Virus record (IMG/VR): IMGVR_UViG_3300032038_000557
Coordinates: 1 to 26,625 of that record
Strand: one strand, 5' to 3'
Length of the DNA: 26,625 nt
Source of the DNA: a virus
Notes under the pieces: model-generated
The model's input: only the letters and a program-made list of their open reading frames with translations
What the model was told of the DNA's origin: nothing
Database searches by the model: none
Part shown: positions 11,881 to 23,246 of the stretch, piece after piece
Position numbering within the stretch: position 1 is the stretch's first letter
Layout of the letters: each line of letters opens with the position of its first letter
Translations under genes and position numbers: made by a program

Positions 11881-11946
11881 CAAGAAAAAATACTATATTT
11901 GCGACTAACATCATCAGTCTTCATCTTAAGTATCTAAAAGTCAGTG

Positions 11947-11983
11947 CAGGATAGTCGAGGGTTCGAGTCCCTTCCGCACCGCA
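11947..11983 (+). other. tRNA 3'-end fragment, candidate attP core
   Basis: T-arm GAGGG-TTCGAGT-CCCTT (11957-11973) is followed by the acceptor 3' strand CCGCACC and discriminator G. The matching 5' strand GGTGCGG and an anticodon arm are absent upstream. It lies 115 nt upstream of the integrase gene. Confidence 0.6.
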
Positions 11984-11992
11984 GAATAACTG

Positions 11993-12027
11993 AAAAGGTA
12001 CTTTGGAGTAGATCTAAGGTACCTTTT
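11993..12027 (+). terminator. Hairpin just downstream of the tRNA-like fragment
   Basis: AAAAGGTAC (11993-12001) pairs with GTACCTTTT (12019-12027) around a 17-nt loop. It could terminate the reconstituted tRNA gene after integration. Confidence 0.35.
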
Positions 12028-12097
12028 CTTATTAGAAATGGTTCTTAGTTGCGACTGATTTGAAATGGAATGAAAACTAGTCTCAATTATTATTGTT

Positions 12098-13225
12098 ATG
12101 AGAACCACATTCAACATTGGTTTCGTTTGCAGACCATCAAAAGCAAACAAGTTAGGATTAGCTCCAGTAGAGCTAACAATCATCATTAATGGCTCTAGAG
12201 CTTACTTAACGTTACAAAGAAAAGAGAATCCAAGTAAGTTCAAGAAGTTGATTGCACAATCTAAACAGAATGATCTTAAGACTTATCTGAATCTGGTAGT
12301 TGATAAGATCAATGAAGCACAATTAGAACTACTGAGAAAGGGAATTCCAGTAACAGTAGAGGGATTGAGAGAATTCATTAAGAATGGTTGTACATCTTCT
12401 TATAAGGTAAGTAATCTCTTCTCTGATTACTTGATTCTATTAAGGAATAGAATAGGTGTAGATCTCACATATCCAGTTTACAGAAAGTATGAGATAGTTA
12501 GAGATTTGTTCTTATCCTTTACTGGAAATGTTGAATTATCATCTATCACTCCCTCTATCATTACTTCATTCTACATTCATCTAAACAAGCAATATCTTCC
12601 CACTACATCAGCAGGAATGATGACTAAGTTGAAGACAGTTATGCTTTACGCATTCAACAATGCTTTAATTAGACACAATCCTTTTTCGACTACTAAGATC
12701 GTTAAGAGAGTCAAAGAAGTTGAATTCTTAACAGAGAAAGAAATTCAAGTAATCAAGAAAAAGAACTTAATCTCTAGATTAGATAAAGTGAGGGATCTAT
12801 TTCTGTTTCAATGCTTTACTGGATTAAGTTATGTAGATATGTCTTTATTAACTAAAGATGATTTCAAAGTAAACGAATACAATCAAATCTTCATTCATAA
12901 AGAAAGAGTAAAGACTGGAGTTTCATTCACTACTGTATTACTGGAAGATGCTGTTAGAATAATCAAGAAATACGATTATCAACTTCCAGTAATAAGTAAT
13001 CAAAAGTACAATGGCTATCTAAAAGAGATTCAAGATATCTGTTGTATCAAGAAATCCCTTCATTCGCACATAGGAAGACACACAGCAGCCACTTATCTAC
13101 TGAATAAGGGAATACCCTTAGAGACAGTTTCAAAGATCTTAGGACACAGTAATATCAAGCAAACACAACATTATGCTAAATTGGTTGATAAGTCTGTCTT
13201 TGCTGCAATAAATAAAATTTCATAA
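12098..13225 (+). CDS. int: Tyrosine recombinase / phage integrase, 375 aa, Bacteroidota-style arm-binding N-terminus
   Basis: Intact ORF under any code. C-terminal catalytic motifs HSHIGRHTAATYLL and LGHSNIKQTQHYAKL (R, H-x-x-R, H/Y pattern). Stop is TAA. The protein contains no Trp at all, so neither TGG nor TGA occurs. Confidence 0.9.
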   Translation: MRTTFNIGFVCRPSKANKLGLAPVELTIIINGSRAYLTLQRKENPSKFKKLIAQSKQNDLKTYLNLVVDKINEAQLELLRKGIPVTVEGLREFIKNGCTSSYKVSNLFSDYLILLRNRIGVDLTYPVYRKYEIVRDLFLSFTGNVELSSITPSIITSFYIHLNKQYLPTTSAGMMTKLKTVMLYAFNNALIRHNPFSTTKIVKRVKEVEFLTEKEIQVIKKKNLISRLDKVRDLFLFQCFTGLSYVDMSLLTKDDFKVNEYNQIFIHKERVKTGVSFTTVLLEDAVRIIKKYDYQLPVISNQKYNGYLKEIQDICCIKKSLHSHIGRHTAATYLLNKGIPLETVSKILGHSNIKQTQHYAKLVDKSVFAAINKIS

Positions 13226-13279
13226 CTTTGCATATTCCCATTGAGGTTTATTTCCTTTTTGGGTCTATACAAATTCTAC

Positions 13280-13320
13280 AGTACAGCTCCGTTGTGATAA
13301 TGCAGCTGTACTTTTCTTTA
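13280..13320 (+). terminator. Rho-independent terminator of the integrase gene
   Basis: AGTACAGCT (13280-13288) pairs with AGCTGTACT (13304-13312), followed by TTTCTTTAT. Confidence 0.6.
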
Positions 13321-13336
13321 TAGGAATCGAACCTAT
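13320..13336 (-). other. Isolated tRNA T-arm-like element (ATAGG-TTCGATT-CCTAT)
   Basis: Perfect 5-bp stem plus the canonical GGTTCGATTCC T-loop on the minus strand. The flanks did not fold into a cloverleaf: the acceptor would be AAAGAAA with no partner, and there is no anticodon arm. Confidence 0.4.
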
Positions 13337-13362
13337 TATGTAAGTAATTGATTTAGAATAAG

Positions 13363-14058
13363 TTAAATAATAGAGGTAAGAGACTTGTCGCTGATAAGTC
13401 TCTTTTTTCTTGGACATCCACCAAGACACCATCTTTCAAAAGCTTTTGGATTATCAGCTTTATCGATGTAAGAGAAATAAAAACTCTTAATCGTAACTGA
13501 TTGATAATCAATCAGCTCCATCTTCATTTCAGATATTGATTTTGAACAGTCATTCATAATTAATTGATTATCAATAACATAACCACTATTGTTTTTCCTA
13601 ATAAAACCCTCTCTCAAACCCTCTCCAAGTAGCTTAAAAAAGGTACTCCTACCTATTTTTAATTGCTTAATAAGCTCATTATTACTCAAACCAATTCAAT
13701 TTCCTTCTCCAAATCTGAATTCCGCTAATCTTAAAATGAAAGCAATCATCTTCGGATCCAACTTGAATATATCATTACTAATCCACATAAAATCCCTATT
13801 CTGGTTAACTACTTGATAGCTAACCAGATTTCTTCCCTTAGTATGATGTGAAGTTTTCTTTACTAGACCTTTCTTTACTAAAAGACTAGTGATCTTACTG
13901 ATAGTATCTAAATCTTTAATTCCAGTCTTCTGAGATATCTTCTCTCTTGTTATATGACTTTCTCCTTTTCAGTTTGAATAGCAGCTTAAAGTGGCATACA
14001 CTAAATACTCTCTATTACTTAAACCATTATGCTTCTTAACCTTAAATGAATTTTTCAT
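13363..14058 (-). CDS. DNA-binding protein with two winged-helix/HTH-like segments, 231 aa; candidate lysogeny or early regulator, or replication initiator
   Basis: ATG 14056-14058. Fragment 13363-13689 extends upstream in frame. I translated the whole region: TGA at 13696 and 13969, no TAA or TAG. HTH-like segments are SHITREKISQKTGIKDLDTISKITSLLVKKGLV and LSNNELIKQLKIGRSTFFKLLGEGLREGFI. Confidence 0.7.
13378..13410 (+). terminator. Second plus-strand hairpin terminator inside the 3' end of the convergent gene
   Basis: AAGAGACTT (13378-13386) pairs with AAGTCTCTT (13396-13404), followed by TTTTCT. It may act bidirectionally between int and the convergent gene 13363-14058. Confidence 0.4.
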
Positions 14059-14063
14059 TGAAC

Positions 14064-14143
14064 TTACTATTAGATTTTTTATATTATATCTTTTATTGAT
14101 ACTGGATTTTCAGTACCACTGATACCTGATTTTCGGTACTCAC
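14064..14143. repeat. Regulatory repeat R2, carrying GGATTTTCAGTAC and TGATTTTCGGTAC
   Basis: Sub-sites at 14104-14116 and 14127-14139, 23 nt apart as in R1. R2 abuts the ATG of gene 13363-14058. Confidence 0.65.
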
Positions 14144-14976: not shown

Positions 14977-15397
14977 ATCCCATTTCAGTTAATATAGAAT
15001 CAAATGGTCTATTATCAAACAGATCTCCATCTTCCTTATGAGATTCTATGTAACGTTGTCCCATTCCCTTACAAGGTTTTCTCAATGGACAAGTTCCATT
15101 AGCACAGAATCCCACACTACACAAGATTAAATCATTATTTAAGTCATTTATCTCTTTATGTAATTGCTCTATTGTTTCTACATCAGAAGAATGAAATCCT
15201 CTCATAGTTTCCACTTCAGAAGATACCACTTCAAGAGCTCTCTGTAATGTTTCTACTGCTATTGATTCAGAAGTATTCTCCGCTTGACTTGCTTGAGCTT
15301 CTGCCAATCTTTTATTGGCTCTCCAGTTAACGAATATTGCTATTCCACCACCAGAGATAAATCCAATAATAGTAGTAATTATTGTTGTCCAATCCAT
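14939..15397 (-). CDS. Single-pass membrane protein, 152 aa; holin or spanin candidate
   Basis: N-terminal TM segment TTIITTIIGFISGGGIAIFV, then a coiled coil and a Cys-rich C-terminus. It lies immediately upstream of the endolysin and overlaps it by 38 nt. No TGA. Stop is TAA. Confidence 0.5.
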   Translation of the reverse strand: MDWTTIITTIIGFISGGGIAIFVNWRANKRLAEAQASQAENTSESIAVETLQRALEVVSSEVETMRGFHSSDVETIEQLHKEINDLNNDLILCSVGFCANGTCPLRKPCKGMGQRYIESHKEDGDLFDNRPFDSILTEMGYGGLQETKTEDS

Positions 15398-15822
15398 TAT
15401 TCATACTCCTCCACACATAATCCGTTTAGTGGAAGTTCAAATGTGATTGTCAAATAAACTCCTGCACAAACATCTTTGAATCTCTGATAGAATACTCTAA
15501 ACAATCCCGGTCTCAGTAAAGCTGCTTCTGGATACTCTTTATCGAAAGTATTGATTATGTTATTTAATACCGTAATACCTTCTGAATGAATCATATTCTG
15601 ATTCTCTTGTGTTTCATCCCATCTGCTTATAAAGAACAAATTCAAAGAATACTCTATTGTATCTTCATTTAATCTAAACTCATTTGGTGTTATGTAGAAC
15701 ACATTATAATCTATATCTGGCAAGCTATTCAGTTCGTAGAGATCTTTACTACCAGCAAAGTTCACATTAGCTTGCCTTAAAGCAATTTTCTTTAAGTTAG
15801 AAAGTAATTCATAGTAAGTCAT
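15397..15822 (-). CDS. Hypothetical virion protein, 141 aa, possible head-tail joining
   Basis: Intact ORF with ATG 15820-15822. Its TAA overlaps the next ATG by 1 nt. The function is inferred only from its position after the portal and connector genes. Confidence 0.6.
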   Translation of the reverse strand: MTYYELLSNLKKIALRQANVNFAGSKDLYELNSLPDIDYNVFYITPNEFRLNEDTIEYSLNLFFISRWDETQENQNMIHSEGITVLNNIINTFDKEYPEAALLRPGLFRVFYQRFKDVCAGVYLTITFELPLNGLCVEEYE

Positions 15823-16439: not shown

Positions 16440-17510
16440 TTAATTGTTAATTGAGTCATCTTCCCATTTGATAATGAATGGACTGATAATCAATGAATTA
16501 GCACCAATAATAGTATTAAATGCACTCTCTATTTCTTTCTGAATTGGAGAAATAACAGTCTTATTATATAACTTGAAAGCAGCTTCAAACTCTACTGCTG
16601 AGAATCCATTGTTCTCTGGATTTAATCCGAATAAGCAAGGATTTGCTCTAAAAGCAATAAAGATTTGCTCTCTAGACCTCTTAGAAAGAGTTTCATATTT
16701 CTTATCGAAATCATCACCATCTAATCTCTCTACAGTTACTCTATTGTCTTCTGAATCATTATAAGCGATTAAGATTCTTCCTGCATTCTGGAAACCACCA
16801 AACTTCTCATTTATTTGTCTTTCTATCTCTTCTTGCTGTTCTTCGTTTGGTTGCCCATTATTGAAAGAAATCACCACATTAGACATAAAGCCATTATTGA
16901 TGTTGTTTAGATGAAATTCATTGATACATTTCTCTATTTCACAAGGAATGACAGCAGCACCATATAAAGGAATAGGATACACACTTCTTGTAACATTCCC
17001 TTTACTGTAATATATGCTTCTAGGAGCAGGATGCTCTGGATCAAACTTTGGTATTTCAATATACTTTGCTCCCCAACTATTCCAATCATTTGAATAGTAG
17101 AACTCAGTATTCTTATCATTTGATCTCAATTTCATAAAATCAATATGATTCAATCACTTTACTCTACCATCTAAACTTCTAATGATTTCAATTGCAAATC
17201 CACCGAATATCAGTTTATCTATTAAGAGTTTCCTCAACAGAGTATTGATTGTATCTCCACTCTCATTCACTACACCAGAAGGAAAGTAAGTACACTGTGC
17301 ATCATCTCCACAAGCAAAATCAACAGTACCGTTGATGATAGATTGTAGAGTGGCTACACTATTATATAAATCCCAAAGATAGTTGGGATAAGTATTTGTC
17401 TTTCCTCAATAGATCGGTTTCTTTGTCCTTACTTTAATTTCATCTGGTGAAGGAATATTGTTCACTACTATAGGATCTATCGCACTTAATTGAACTGTCT
17501 TATTCTCCAT
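16440..17510 (-). CDS. Portal protein, 356 aa
   Basis: ATG 17508-17510. Fragment 16440-17153 extends upstream in frame through TGA at 17154 and 17406 (context PIY-W-GK) with no TAA or TAG. The portal-like core reads FGGFQNAGRILIAYNDSEDNRVTVERL...REQIFIAFRANPCLFG. Confidence 0.8.
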
Positions 17511-17814
17511 ATGCTATATAACTATTTGATTTATTGTATGTTAGCTTACTTTCTTTCATTCCTATTCTAAGTAATCCAGTAGCTACTATCTTCGTTGGAT
17601 ATCCAATTAACAAACTGTTAAAGATGTTGTTTACGTCTATCTCTATATCTACTTGCTCTGGATTCTCTATTAGAAGATATTGATATTCAGCTTCTTTTGG
17701 ATCCTCCAGTTCTATTTGAAACTTATAGTATAATCCATCTGGATTCAAATCTTCCAGAATGTATTTATCAGTTTCTTTCGTTGTTGTGTTTTGTAATAAG
17801 AATGTATAATTCAT
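17500..17814 (-). CDS. Hypothetical protein, 104 aa
   Basis: Intact ORF ending in TAA. It overlaps the portal start by 11 nt. Confidence 0.6.
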   Translation of the reverse strand: MNYTFLLQNTTTKETDKYILEDLNPDGLYYKFQIELEDPKEAEYQYLLIENPEQVDIEIDVNNIFNSLLIGYPTKIVATGLLRIGMKESKLTYNKSNSYIAYGE

Positions 17815-17880
17815 AAAAATTCTATGTAAAATTGAGTTAAACTTCTTTAGATTAAAATATAATTGCCATCTAATTAGTAA

Positions 17881-17910
17881 GAAAAAGGGACTCCTAATAG
17901 GGAGTCCCTT
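17881..17910 (-). terminator. Rho-independent terminator inside the late region
   Basis: 10-bp stem AAGGGACTCC / GGAGTCCCTT (17885-17894 and 17901-17910) with a 6-nt loop. A T-run follows on the minus strand. Confidence 0.65.
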
Positions 17911-17916
17911 AATCAG

Positions 17917-18060
17917 TTAAATCTTAGCTAAAATGGCATTCAACTTTGCATCTACTTCAGCTTTAGTGTAGTGATCTCTTTCACTGTTAGTAGTAATTAC
18001 TCCAGCTTCTCTATAAACGTAAAACGTTTGTGGCTCTGTAGTATTTTTAAGAATTATCAT
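17917..18060 (-). CDS. Small hypothetical protein, 47 aa
   Basis: ATG 18058-18060 overlaps the upstream gene end. Sequence: MIILKNTTEPQTFYVYREAGVITTNSERDHYTKAEVDAKLNAILAKI. Stop is TAA at 17917-17919, just before the terminator. Confidence 0.4.
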   Translation of the reverse strand: MIILKNTTEPQTFYVYREAGVITTNSERDHYTKAEVDAKLNAILAKI

Positions 18061-18274
18061 TTTCTTTCTCGCTTTCTAGTTCCTTTAGCCAATTGTAAGT
18101 GGCATCTTCTTCTGCAGTAATCTCTCTGTAAACAGAAGTATCAGTAGTTAAAGGACAATTTGCTATTTTGGAGCTACTGTAGTTTTTGATATCTTCTGTG
18201 TCTTTATATGTTGTTATATAGTGATCATCATCAGCGATAATCTCTATAAAGTATTTTTTAGTATTGATTTTCAT
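18047..18274 (-). CDS. Hypothetical acidic protein, 75 aa
   Basis: Intact ORF ending in TAA. Confidence 0.55.
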   Translation of the reverse strand: MKINTKKYFIEIIADDDHYITTYKDTEDIKNYSSSKIANCPLTTDTSVYREITAEEDATYNWLKELESEKENDNS

Positions 18275-18286
18275 AGTCTAAATGTT

Positions 18287-21085
18287 TTAAGCCGTCATAA
18301 TAGTCCATCTCTTTGCAGTAGCAATAGCAATTTCCTCTTCACTTAAGAGAGCATAAGATGTTGCATTAAGATATAACTGAGCATCAGTTACAGTAGTATC
18401 ATCTGGAGCTGCTAAACCGTTGATCACATTCATAATGGATTCTTTAGTTAATGCAGTGAGTTTAGTTAGGATGAGTCGATGATCAACACCTCCGCTTCCA
18501 ACAAACGCTTTACCAAGATTAGTGAAACCACCAAGAGTTGTTAAGCTATTATATTTTTGATTGCGAGAAGCACCAAACGGATTCGCTTTAGCTACAGAAG
18601 TACAATCCATCGCTCCAATAGAAGTATAGCTAAAGGAAGCATTTGAGTTATTTGAGCCAAACATACTGGTAATATCAAAAGCATTTGGGCTATTGAATGC
18701 AGGAAGGCTAGTTATTCCAGTACAATCATAGAACATATAATCCATACCCTCAACGTTACTATAATCAAATTGAGGAATTGCAGTAAGGTTGACACAACTC
18801 TGAAACATACTTGTCATCGTAGTTGCTTTACTTGTATTATACGCAGGAACTGTTGACAATAGAGCACAACCCTTAAACATATCTCTGAAGTCAGTTACAT
18901 TTGCTGTATTGAAAGTTGGTGCAGTCTGTAAAGTTGAACAGTTTTGGAACATTTGCATACAATTCTGAAGTGAATCAGTATTAGTCAACGTTACATTTTT
19001 AAGATTCTTACAACCATAGAACATTTGATAAGCTGATCCAACGTCACCACCGCCAGAAGCATTCGCTAAATCAACCGATGCTCTTCTCAAACTAATGCAT
19101 CCACCAAATAAAGAATAGGAGGTAGCCTCTGAGGAAGGATTTATAGTTCTAAACTGTAGATCTGGTGCATACACTAAATTAACACAACCTTGGAAGAATC
19201 CAACACTACTATTTATAGTTTCTGTTATATCAACCTTCGGAGCATATACCATAGCTGGTTTATAACTCCAATACGTTGAATCATCTTCTGGAGTATAATT
19301 CTCTAAAAGATTAGCAGTAATAGCAACATCACTATTTATACCAACACTCGCTACATCTTCGCAGGTCCAACCCATTGATTCCCAATCAACGCATCCACCA
19401 CCAGAAGAAGGAACGTTAACAGTTATTGAAACACCATCAAAGTAATCAAACTGTTCTCCTTGATAATCAGAAGGAGTATAAGTATATGTTCCATTCTCTG
19501 TGATGGTTTCCTCTACATAACCAGTATGAGGATCATCTCCACCTCCACATTCAGCTTGTCCTTGAGCATAACCAGCATCATATCCTGCTGTATAACCTTC
19601 ATCAGTACCTTCAACACCAAGAATAGTTACACCAGATAAGATATTCTCTGGCTGTATGTTAGCATCAATTGAAGCAGTTACACCAGCAATAGTAACTTGC
19701 GAAAGAGCATCATAACCTTGATCTGGAGTTATAATCTGTTGAGCAGTAGAAGGATCAGCTGTCTTTGCTTGTAAAGTGGTTACAGAAGTAGGAACATTAA
19801 CGGTTATGCTTGCCGATCCATAGAAGTCAGCATCACTTTGCGTAGGATCAAATTCATAAGTTCCATTAGCAGTAATAGTTTCCTTTAAGTCAATAGATGA
19901 TGGTTCTGGAACAGCAACTGTTATGGAAGCACTATCAAATCCATCATACTGACTACCTTGATAATCAGAAGGATCGAAATTATATGTTCCGTTTTCAGTA
20001 ATAGTTTCTTGTAAAGCGGCTGTTTCAAATGTAGGGCATTCTGATTGTCCTTGAGCATAACCTTCATCCCAACCTGCTTGATAACCAGCATTTGTACCAG
20101 AAACACCAAGAATACTAACTCCTTCAATGATATTCTCCGGCTGTATATTATCATCAATTCCAGCAGTAACTGAATTGACTGTTACTTTATTTAATCCATC
20201 ATAATCATCATCAGCGGTAACTTCTATTGGAATTGTATTAGGAATGACTGTCTTACTTTGAAGTCTAGGTTCAATATCAACTTCCACTTGATTCCAACCA
20301 TCTTCTCTTGTAAAGACACCGTTCTCAGTAAAGGTAGTGGAAGTGAGTTTAGCTTTCTGTTCTGCAACACCAGCACTATGACCTTCATCATAGTAAGCAG
20401 AAGTATCTATGTTAGTAGTAATTTCAACACTTGATAAACCATCGTAGTTAGCATCTGGAGTAACAGCAGTAACTCCATTCTCTGTTATAGTAACAGTTTT
20501 CTCTTGAGTTGAGAAAGTAGGAATAGGGACATTAACAGATACATCTGAATAACCATCTTCTCTTGAATAATCACCATTAGCAGTTATATCAAGATGAGTA
20601 AGTTTAGCTTTCTGTTGTTCAGTACCAGCTCTATATCCTTCATTATAATATTTATCTGTATTAATATTGGTAGTAACGGATACACTAGATAAACCGTCAT
20701 AATTAGCATCTGGAGTTACTGCAGTCACTCCGTTTTCTGTAACAGTAATTGATTTCTCTTGAGTGGAGAAAGTGGGAATAGGAACATTCACATTAACTGA
20801 ATTGTAACCATCTTCTCTATCATACTGTCCATTAGCAGTAACTTCTAAAGAAGTAAGTTTTGCTTTTTGTTCCTCAATACCATCTTCTTTCCCTTCATTA
20901 TATAAAGCTTCATCACTAACTTCTACAGTGACTTTGCTATAACCGTCATAACCTTCCTCTGGAGTATAGACACCATTCTCAGTAGCAGTCAATTCAGTGA
21001 GAGTTGCTGAATTACCTTCGGTGTTCTGTCCAGCTCTTGTAGTAGTGTTAAGAGCGGTTTTTGGAGTTGTAAATTTAATTGCCAT
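18287..21085 (-). CDS. BspA-like / DUF285-type leucine-rich-repeat surface protein fused to tandem repeat modules, 932 aa; probable adhesin or receptor-binding protein
   Basis: The C-terminal third has repeats of the type NTxNVTxMxxMFxxCxxLxxxP (FQGCVNL, FGGCISL, FYGCKNL, FQNCSTL, FKGCALL, FQSCVNL, FYDCTGI). The N-terminal part has about 85-aa tandem repeats (QKAKLT...TENGV...DANYDGLSSV). There are 932 codons with 6 TGG and no TGA. Confidence 0.8.
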   Translation of the reverse strand: MAIKFTTPKTALNTTTRAGQNTEGNSATLTELTATENGVYTPEEGYDGYSKVTVEVSDEALYNEGKEDGIEEQKAKLTSLEVTANGQYDREDGYNSVNVNVPIPTFSTQEKSITVTENGVTAVTPDANYDGLSSVSVTTNINTDKYYNEGYRAGTEQQKAKLTHLDITANGDYSREDGYSDVSVNVPIPTFSTQEKTVTITENGVTAVTPDANYDGLSSVEITTNIDTSAYYDEGHSAGVAEQKAKLTSTTFTENGVFTREDGWNQVEVDIEPRLQSKTVIPNTIPIEVTADDDYDGLNKVTVNSVTAGIDDNIQPENIIEGVSILGVSGTNAGYQAGWDEGYAQGQSECPTFETAALQETITENGTYNFDPSDYQGSQYDGFDSASITVAVPEPSSIDLKETITANGTYEFDPTQSDADFYGSASITVNVPTSVTTLQAKTADPSTAQQIITPDQGYDALSQVTIAGVTASIDANIQPENILSGVTILGVEGTDEGYTAGYDAGYAQGQAECGGGDDPHTGYVEETITENGTYTYTPSDYQGEQFDYFDGVSITVNVPSSGGGCVDWESMGWTCEDVASVGINSDVAITANLLENYTPEDDSTYWSYKPAMVYAPKVDITETINSSVGFFQGCVNLVYAPDLQFRTINPSSEATSYSLFGGCISLRRASVDLANASGGGDVGSAYQMFYGCKNLKNVTLTNTDSLQNCMQMFQNCSTLQTAPTFNTANVTDFRDMFKGCALLSTVPAYNTSKATTMTSMFQSCVNLTAIPQFDYSNVEGMDYMFYDCTGITSLPAFNSPNAFDITSMFGSNNSNASFSYTSIGAMDCTSVAKANPFGASRNQKYNSLTTLGGFTNLGKAFVGSGGVDHRLILTKLTALTKESIMNVINGLAAPDDTTVTDAQLYLNATSYALLSEEEIAIATAKRWTIMTA

Positions 21086-21099
21086 ATTAACTTTATATT

Positions 21100-21137
21100 A
21101 AAAAAGCCGAGCAGAGCAAATCTGCCCATACTCGGCT
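21100..21137 (-). terminator. Rho-independent terminator after the major tail gene
   Basis: AGCCGAG (21105-21111) pairs with CTCGGCT (21131-21137), with an inner GCAGA/TCTGC helix. A T6 run follows on the minus strand. Confidence 0.65.
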
Positions 21138-21159
21138 CATTATTAAACATTAGTACAAA

Positions 21160-21729
21160 TTAGCAAGCATTTGCTACGTTACCTTTCATAGCAGTAACTG
21201 CTTCTGCAGTAAGTTCATAAGGATAAGTCTTGGAATCGGTAGAAAGAGTGATTAAGTAAGCATTCTGATCACCTTTTGCAGTACCAGTGTTACCAGAACC
21301 AGCAGATGCACTTACATAATCATCTAAACCAAGATACCAGTATTTACCATTGGAATCCTCAACAACTGCCACCACTTGACCAATAGACATAGCTGCGATT
21401 TCGAGTCTCTTAGCAGTTTCCATCTTGGTAAAGACAAGAGAAAGCTCATTTGCAACATAGTTGGTTCCAGTAGTTTCATCTACATTAAGAGTGGAAGTTA
21501 AACTTCCAGTCTCTTTTCTAAACTGATATTCGTACCATTTTGCATCAGCTTTAAGAGTGATTGCGGAAATGGCAAGATCCCTATCATCATTATCGGAAAC
21601 TGGATCAACGGTAACTGCAGTTACATCAGAGTAACGAGTTAACCAAACTCTTTTGATACCACCGAGAGATGACTGGCAATCCATACAAATACCAGCAAGG
21701 GTTATACTTGAACAATTAAGATTAGGCAT
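21160..21729 (-). CDS. Putative major tail protein, 189 aa
   Basis: Intact ORF followed by a strong terminator. The pattern KWYEYQFRKETGSLT...ELSLVF...VVAVVEDSNGKYWYLGLDD...GTGTAKGDQNAY resembles siphovirus major tail proteins as I recall them. No TGA. Confidence 0.55.
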   Translation of the reverse strand: MPNLNCSSITLAGICMDCQSSLGGIKRVWLTRYSDVTAVTVDPVSDNDDRDLAISAITLKADAKWYEYQFRKETGSLTSTLNVDETTGTNYVANELSLVFTKMETAKRLEIAAMSIGQVVAVVEDSNGKYWYLGLDDYVSASAGSGNTGTAKGDQNAYLITLSTDSKTYPYELTAEAVTAMKGNVANAC

Positions 21730-21757
21730 AGTAAAAAATTAATTAAATGTTTATAAA

Positions 21758-22669
21758 TTAAACAGTTGCGAGAACAACCTCGTTAGGGAATGCAACCTGA
21801 ACACCGAAGTTGAATTCGATATCAAGACGGAATTCTCTATTATCTTGTGAGTACCAGAACTCAAACTTCTCTTGATCATCCTGCATATCACAGCCATAGA
21901 AGAAATTCTTCTCTAACTGACCAGCAACGATGGAATTGGTTCCATTAAGTCCGTTAACAGCAATAACCTTAACAGAAGTACCAGGAATGATAACCTCATC
22001 AACTGGAGTACCAGGATTGTAGTGATATAAGTTCTTCTCAACGAGAGCCTGCACAAAGAGACGGAATTTGTCTGCACCCATAACGATAGAGGAACCTTCA
22101 AGAACCTCAACGGGAATTGCATTGTAAACAGCAAGAACTGCATTGTAAACATCAGTAGCAGTGGTAAGAGTAACAGTAACCTTGTTAACACCAGTGGCTG
22201 CATTAAGGATCTTTAAGAGACCATCAACTTTATTGAGGTTTTCATCTGCACTGTCAGTATCACCCTGCCAAATAGCCTTCTCAACAGCAGCATTGACACT
22301 CTTGATGACTTCGTTGATGAAATTCTCCTCGAAAGGAAGAGTCTTCTGACCAGCAGCAACTCTAACAGCATACTGAGTTCAGTATTTGAGCATTTCCTTA
22401 TCACAGTAAGCCATATTGATCTTTATGTGACCAGTGTGAAGGATTCTCTGAGAAAGAGTCTGTGCACCACCTTCTTCCCAACCGCAAGTAAGTCCGTCAC
22501 CGAACTCAACTTCAGTAGAAAGAAGATTGAGAGCTGCGTCTAATTTAACGCCAGTCTGTAAATTGAAAAGACTAGCAGATTTTGATTTAATAACCGCTTG
22601 AGCGATAAGAGGGAGTCTATGCTGCTCAATGTACGCAGTCATAGAACTAAAAATAGGGTTTGTAGCCAT
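21758..22669 (-). CDS. Major capsid protein, 303 aa
   Basis: Fragments 21758-22081 and 22379-22669 are in frame. I translated 22082-22378 and it is open. The single TGA is at 22379 (context MLKY-W-TQYAV). It lies directly after the protease and scaffold genes. Stop is TAA. Confidence 0.8.
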
Positions 22670-22697
22670 AGTTTAAATAAGTTGTTTTATTAATTAA

Positions 22698-23246
22698 TTA
22701 TTTCCTAGAAGCTTCTTTAATACCCTCTAACATCGCATTGAAATTGCGGTCTTTTGTAGTAAGGTTAGCTTCCTTTTTATCTATCTCTACTTCTGCAGAT
22801 TCAATTGCTGACATTTCACACACTTTCTGAAGTTGTGCATTAGTTTCAACACCAGCAGACTCTACTGCAGCTACTTTCTTAACGAGCTGATCTACAATAT
22901 TATAGAGCTCGTTTATTTCTTTACGGATCTCTTCAATTGCATCTGGAGTGGATTCCACTTCTGGAGTCTCTTCGAGAGCTTCTTCTACTTCTTCAACTTC
23001 TTCAACTTCTTCTTTGGTTTTGATGTCAGTGATGATTCCATCAGCAACTACATATGTTCTGCCATCATCAGCAACATATTCTCCATCAGCAGCAGGAATA
23101 AACTCACCATCAGATTCAACGTAAACAGCGATACCGACAGTAACATCATCTTCTGCATAATTAAGAACAGCATCAGCAGTTCTGATTTCTCCAAGTTGAG
23201 CAAGAAGCTTTTTTAACTCTACTTTAAGTTTAGAAAATTTACTCAT
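22698..23246 (-). CDS. Scaffolding protein, 182 aa
   Basis: Acidic helical protein with EEVEEVEEVEE, located between the protease and capsid genes. No Trp codons. Confidence 0.6.
   Translation of the reverse strand: MSKFSKLKVELKKLLAQLGEIRTADAVLNYAEDDVTVGIAVYVESDGEFIPAADGEYVADDGRTYVVADGIITDIKTKEEVEEVEEVEEALEETPEVESTPDAIEEIRKEINELYNIVDQLVKKVAAVESAGVETNAQLQKVCEMSAIESAEVEIDKKEANLTTKDRNFNAMLEGIKEASRK

Follow-up and report, generated by a model that had tools for sequence, protein, structure and literature searches.

The tyrosine integrase encoded at 12098..13225 (+) contains no tryptophan, and this is very probably a trait inherited from its family rather than an adaptation to recoding in the phage that carries it. 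The window analyzed here is a whole record, one linear virus contig of 26,625 bp with an estimated completeness of 87% and a GC content of ~0.33. In our reading the protein would be an ordinary tRNA-targeting, Bacteroidota-type tyrosine integrase of a ~30 kb temperate Bacteroidales phage that reads TGA as Trp. Its subfamily lacks any structurally required Trp, with a mean of ~1.5 Trp per protein, and the clade that includes the window would have lost the residue altogether. Readability of the gene under both codes would then be an incidental, presumably unselected, by-product.

Under genetic code 11, open reading frames (ORFs) of 150 aa or more account for 0.53 of the window; code 4 raises this to 0.83 and joins fragments into a full TerL (402 aa), portal protein (356 aa), endolysin, tape-measure-like protein, and others. 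At 115 positions where a window TGA could be aligned with relatives, it stands opposite TGA in 32 cases and Trp in 25, with the next commonest residues at 7 or fewer, indicating that TGA is read as Trp. The 31 ORFs (8,729 codons) contain 73 TGA and 58 TGG codons, or ~1.5% Trp. At least one in-frame TGA is present in 23 of the 31, in agreement with the first-pass annotation, which held that most genes other than the integrase would be truncated without UGA suppression. Besides the integrase, seven ORFs are free of TGA (15397-15822, 17500-17814, 18047-18274, 18287-21085, 21160-21729, 22698-23246, and a partial ORF at 2-247); the one at 18287-21085 uses six TGG codons for a DUF285/BspA-like protein of 932 aa.

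The structural-gene block at 17500-23246 differs from the rest of the window, with ~13 TGG to 1-2 TGA codons (outside the block TGA outnumbers TGG) and a GC content of 0.37-0.41, compared with ~0.32 elsewhere. Its proteins are ~52% identical to their counterparts in L183, a standard-code prophage described below. This block may be mosaic DNA from a standard-code relative.

The integrase is 375 aa in length and combines an N-terminal Arm-DNA-bind_5 domain with SAM-like core-binding and catalytic domains; its gene ends in TAA. Translation and codon counting verified the earlier description of a 375-aa recombinase with neither TGA nor TGG: the ORF contains zero of each and translates without W to a single terminal TAA. 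It is also the only convincing gene on the plus strand, as had been proposed. A gene without Trp codons has no TGA and can be read under either code, and the ORF is indeed the same under codes 11 and 4, bearing out the view that it is readable with or without UGA suppression. Code 4 does add a 20-codon upstream extension from 12038 that contains two TGA codons; we place this outside the gene because the start at 12098 (MRTTFNI) is kept in all aligned homologs.

All three domains score above their Pfam gathering cut-offs: PF00589 (Phage_integrase) at 53.5 bits (cut-off 27.1), PF17293 (Arm-DNA-bind_5) at 25.8 bits (cut-off 22.6), and PF13102 (Phage_int_SAM_5) at 34.4 bits (cut-off 22.3). The nearest solved structures, XerA (5hxy) and XerD (1a0p), are weak matches (E ~1e-8 to 1e-9). 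Catalytic residues K272, H324-x-x-R327, H350, and Y359 are invariant in the homolog alignment (A1). Ser244 (12827-12829) takes the place of the canonical Arg I, the arginine of the XerD and XerA TGLR motif; among 137 family members, this column of the TGL(S/A)Y motif is Ser or Ala in 134. Arg270, within a K-x-R-x-K-T-G hairpin, is invariant and might replace the missing Arg I, as has reportedly been proposed for an alternative Arg in work on IntDOT. Both the architecture and the conserved K, H-x-x-R, H, and Y match the Bacteroidota Arm-DNA-bind_5 integrases (PF17293 + PF13102 + PF00589), whose carriers adjoin tRNA genes in Bacteroidales contigs. Integrases of this architecture are presumably the IntDOT/NBU-type lineage; the members aligned here are uncharacterized ones.

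Comparison with related integrases demonstrated that Trp is scarce throughout the family. Among the closest sequences (52-99% identity, query included), 119 of 121 are without Trp, and the conserved core is Trp-free in all 121. The two exceptions carry their W outside the core, one in a 44-residue N-terminal extension and the other in a C-terminal extension; both extensions probably reflect mis-called ends. Cluster representatives, searched exhaustively with HMMER, yielded 150 more distant relatives (34-53% identity), of which 39 have zero Trp and 50 have one. In the 136 full-length representatives from this distant set, 36 of them Trp-free, Trp makes up 0.39% of residues. The most Trp-rich column reaches only 17 of 136, and counting Trp at the conserved columns therefore showed a subfamily without a conserved Trp column. 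The LTKDDF segment (residues 251-256) had been described as a position that is commonly Trp in this family, but each of its columns holds W in 0 of 137 members; an L-x-W-x-D-I motif does occur in other tyrosine recombinases.

A Trp-free protein of this size had been called unusual, which is true against the genome but not against the family. The integrase has zero Trp, compared with ~1.5% over the 31 ORFs, and at that genome-wide rate the probability of zero Trp in 375 aa is ~0.0035; at the family rate of 0.39% it is ~0.23. Single-sequence searches with the integrase gave no match among viral contigs and distant matches only among genome contigs, and relatives at the DNA level were found with the alignment-based query (A1). 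Protein databases built under code 11 would miss TGA-containing integrases; the DNA-level check covered seven recoded relatives.

The code of the phages carrying these integrases was typed by homology-anchored stop counts together with ORF lists, which covers a minority of the 120 database homologs. Counts of TGA in long or greedy code-4 ORFs were dropped as a recoding score, being too noisy at loci of higher GC. Recoded relatives include G001-G003 (the same as L008-L010; integrase 60% identical), whose TerL has 2 in-frame TGA, L091 and L090 (integrase 59% and 54%), with TGA within TerL or portal, and L088 (integrase 54%), in which a Rep-like gene spans 2 stops. L091 was at one stage taken for a standard-code relative on account of its full-length called genes, but in-frame TGA in its TerL, portal, and other genes under code 4 ruled this out, and the gene caller had in fact used code 4. 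L025 and L066, despite some gain in code-4 coverage, proved to be standard code.

Standard-code relatives with equally Trp-free integrases were found at several distances from the window. The closest is prophage L183, whose integrase is 57.6% identical and in which 1,962 aligned residues are free of stops; its structural ORFs are intact under code 11, and it shares 50% identity with the window in the portal, 52% in a capsid-like protein, and 52% in another structural protein. Two others are G004/L012 (integrase 43%; TerL without stops, 0 stops in 1,890 aligned residues) and G005/L015 (integrase 37%; complete, with direct terminal repeats; TerL stop-free, 0 stops in 1,489 aligned residues). The integrases of all the code-typed relatives listed here, recoded (G001-G003, L091, L090, and L088) and standard (G004, G005, and L183) alike, are Trp-free. 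In a maximum likelihood tree the window falls inside a Trp-free clade (UFboot/SH-aLRT 93/88), where recoded members stand together with standard-code L183 and with L001, which is probably standard code. Because this clade holds phages of both kinds, recoding was not what gave rise to the trait. The first-pass annotation had read the absence of Trp as code neutrality; the neutrality is real, while the adaptive part gives way to a family-wide trait shared by standard-code relatives. It had itself named equally Trp-free close homologs from standard-code phages as the finding that would count against adaptation, and L183 provides one.

L001/L182 (integrase 60% identical) is probably standard code, though not clean. 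In L001, the three called genes that follow one another at 12271-14085 (94, 197, and 241 aa) share a reading frame and have TGA between them; read with code 4 they become a single 604-aa ORF containing 5 TGA. The surrounding integrative element, on a Bacteroidales contig, otherwise uses the standard code. A search for a family match to this 604-aa ORF found none.

The competing explanation, that selection purged Trp codons from the integrase and that the code then gates lysogeny versus lysis, we regard as very unlikely, although it has a precedent. In the TAG-recoded Garnet and Topaz prophages, integrases are among the few genes without recoded stops (Borges et al., bioRxiv 10.1101/2021.08.26.457843; later Nat Microbiol 2022) and significantly avoid such stops in frame, and recoding was proposed as a lysis-lysogeny switch (Borges et al., bioRxiv 10.1101/2021.08.26.457843). 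The TGA-free integrase of the window is an analogue of these already reported genes: it is free of TGA while 23 of the 31 ORFs are not, and at the DNA level the integrases are TGA-free in all seven recoded relatives examined. Like Garnet and Topaz, the phage of the window is small and temperate, would integrate at a tRNA gene, and has a gut bacterium with the standard code as its likely host. However, Garnet and Topaz read TAG as Gln, and their integrases are rich in Gln codons with measurable TAG avoidance, whereas here TGA is Trp and Trp codons are entirely missing from the integrase. Avoidance of TGA beyond that predicted by TGG use, as the Borges model expects, is not seen, and with zero Trp codons the integrase provides no TGG baseline from which avoidance could be measured. 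Removal of Trp would in any case gain nothing, since TGG encodes Trp under either code; a gene without TGA is already neutral, and total loss of Trp goes beyond that requirement. The adaptive explanation is further at odds with the little Trp found throughout the integrase family and with the standard-code relatives that are just as Trp-free.

The surrounding genes also argue against gating by the code. The Rep/HTH_36-like gene adjoining the integrase contains 2 TGA, and the gene divergent from it across attP contains 7 TGA in 132 aa. That early genes are recoded too had been pointed out before, and it holds for the Rep-like gene and for the small genes beside the integrase, which carry many TGA. 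A TGA-free repressor candidate was not found in the window. Neither a whole tRNA (ARAGORN) nor any Rfam match was found there, a further difference from Garnet and Topaz, and a search with RF00005 found no tRNA in G000-G003, of which G001 and G003 are recoded and estimated to be 100% complete. While tRNA was searched for specifically, no release factor or aminoacyl-tRNA synthetase appeared in the PHROG and Pfam annotation. With no visible code-switch module, UGA decoding must come from the host, which weakens any gating role for the neutrality of the integrase; the likely hosts are standard-code Bacteroidales. The proposal that recoding separates lysogenic from lytic expression is thus a poor fit to this phage, which shows neither a TGA-free repressor nor a suppressor tRNA.

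Were the loss of Trp adaptive, it would offer fresh evidence, at the level of sequence, of phages adjusting the amino-acid make-up of lysogeny genes so that these do not depend on the code. The Trp-poor composition came first, independently of recoding, and the integrase therefore lends no independent support to the lysis-lysogeny switch model. In phages that read TGA as Trp, avoidance of the recoded stop should be judged against the Trp content of the protein family and against standard-code sister phages.

A different possibility is that the Trp-free integrase, though unselected, eased the drift of its lineage between the standard code and TGA as Trp, there being no TGG that could drift to TGA in this gene, the one whose product is needed in a cell without suppression. 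The single Trp-free clade with both recoded and standard-code members is in keeping with this, as is the finding that, among typed loci, recoded ones occur only in that clade. Every TGA-recoded relative in the sample falls inside it; the sample was, however, seeded from the window and is biased accordingly, which leaves room for a permissive link between integrase and recoding. We consider such pre-adaptation unlikely, as purifying selection would simply retain TGG, in the way that CAA and CAG are retained in the Garnet and Topaz integrases, and as other genes needed early are recoded anyway. A broader form, to which we likewise give little credence, is that the Trp-free integrase clade is a permissive background in which small temperate Bacteroidales phages switch code repeatedly, with integrase expression safe and UGA decoding supplied by the host. 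An inherited family trait is the reading we prefer to both.

The attachment site is consistent with an ordinary tRNA-targeting integrase. Just upstream of the integrase and adjoining it, the attP core (11954..11984, +) is identical over ~30 nt to the 3′ end (T-arm and acceptor) of tRNA-Asp(GTC) genes of gut and rumen Bacteroidales. The matching tRNA genes sit on large gut and rumen contigs, and host-side proteins beside one of them are named as Bacteroidales or Ca. Cryptobacteroides, with code 11 reading them normally. Such a core is typical of attP, and the integrase would most likely recombine it with the host tRNA-Asp gene. An inspection of 80 metagenome tRNA-Asp loci found no integrated copy of the phage. 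Prophage L183 lies directly downstream of an intact tRNA-Asp(GTC), the same target tRNA, and other members of the clade adjoin tRNA-Arg, tRNA-Ser, or tRNA-Val.

Further elements surround the core. The motif TTGCGAC occurs on its left (P-arm) side (11899..11905, +) as a candidate arm-type integrase site, and again between the core and the integrase start (12049..12055, +) as a candidate arm-type site or operator. These are the only two copies in the 26.6-kb window and they flank the att core, though the count alone is not significant (at least two copies in 16 of 100 shuffles). L001 and L183 carry similar T(T)GCGAC pairs ahead of their integrase genes, and the pair may represent arm-type sites. 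Just past the tRNA fragment, an inverted repeat read from the sequence (AAAAGGTAC...GTACCTTTT, followed by a T-rich stretch; 11994..12035, +) resembles a terminator that would serve the tRNA-Asp gene once integration has restored it.

Two relatives deserve mention for their genomic setting. L088/L089, on a contig of GCA_016295045.1, is integrated after tRNA-Pro and tRNA-Ser(CGA), beside normally coded bacterial genes; it looks like a TGA-recoded prophage relative and supports the existence of recoded prophages in standard-code hosts. A 59%-identical integrase (P0028; NCBI MBO7712581.1) is encoded on a ~34-kb contig that NCBI labels Methanobrevibacter sp. but that is probably phage DNA wrongly binned with an archaeal MAG.
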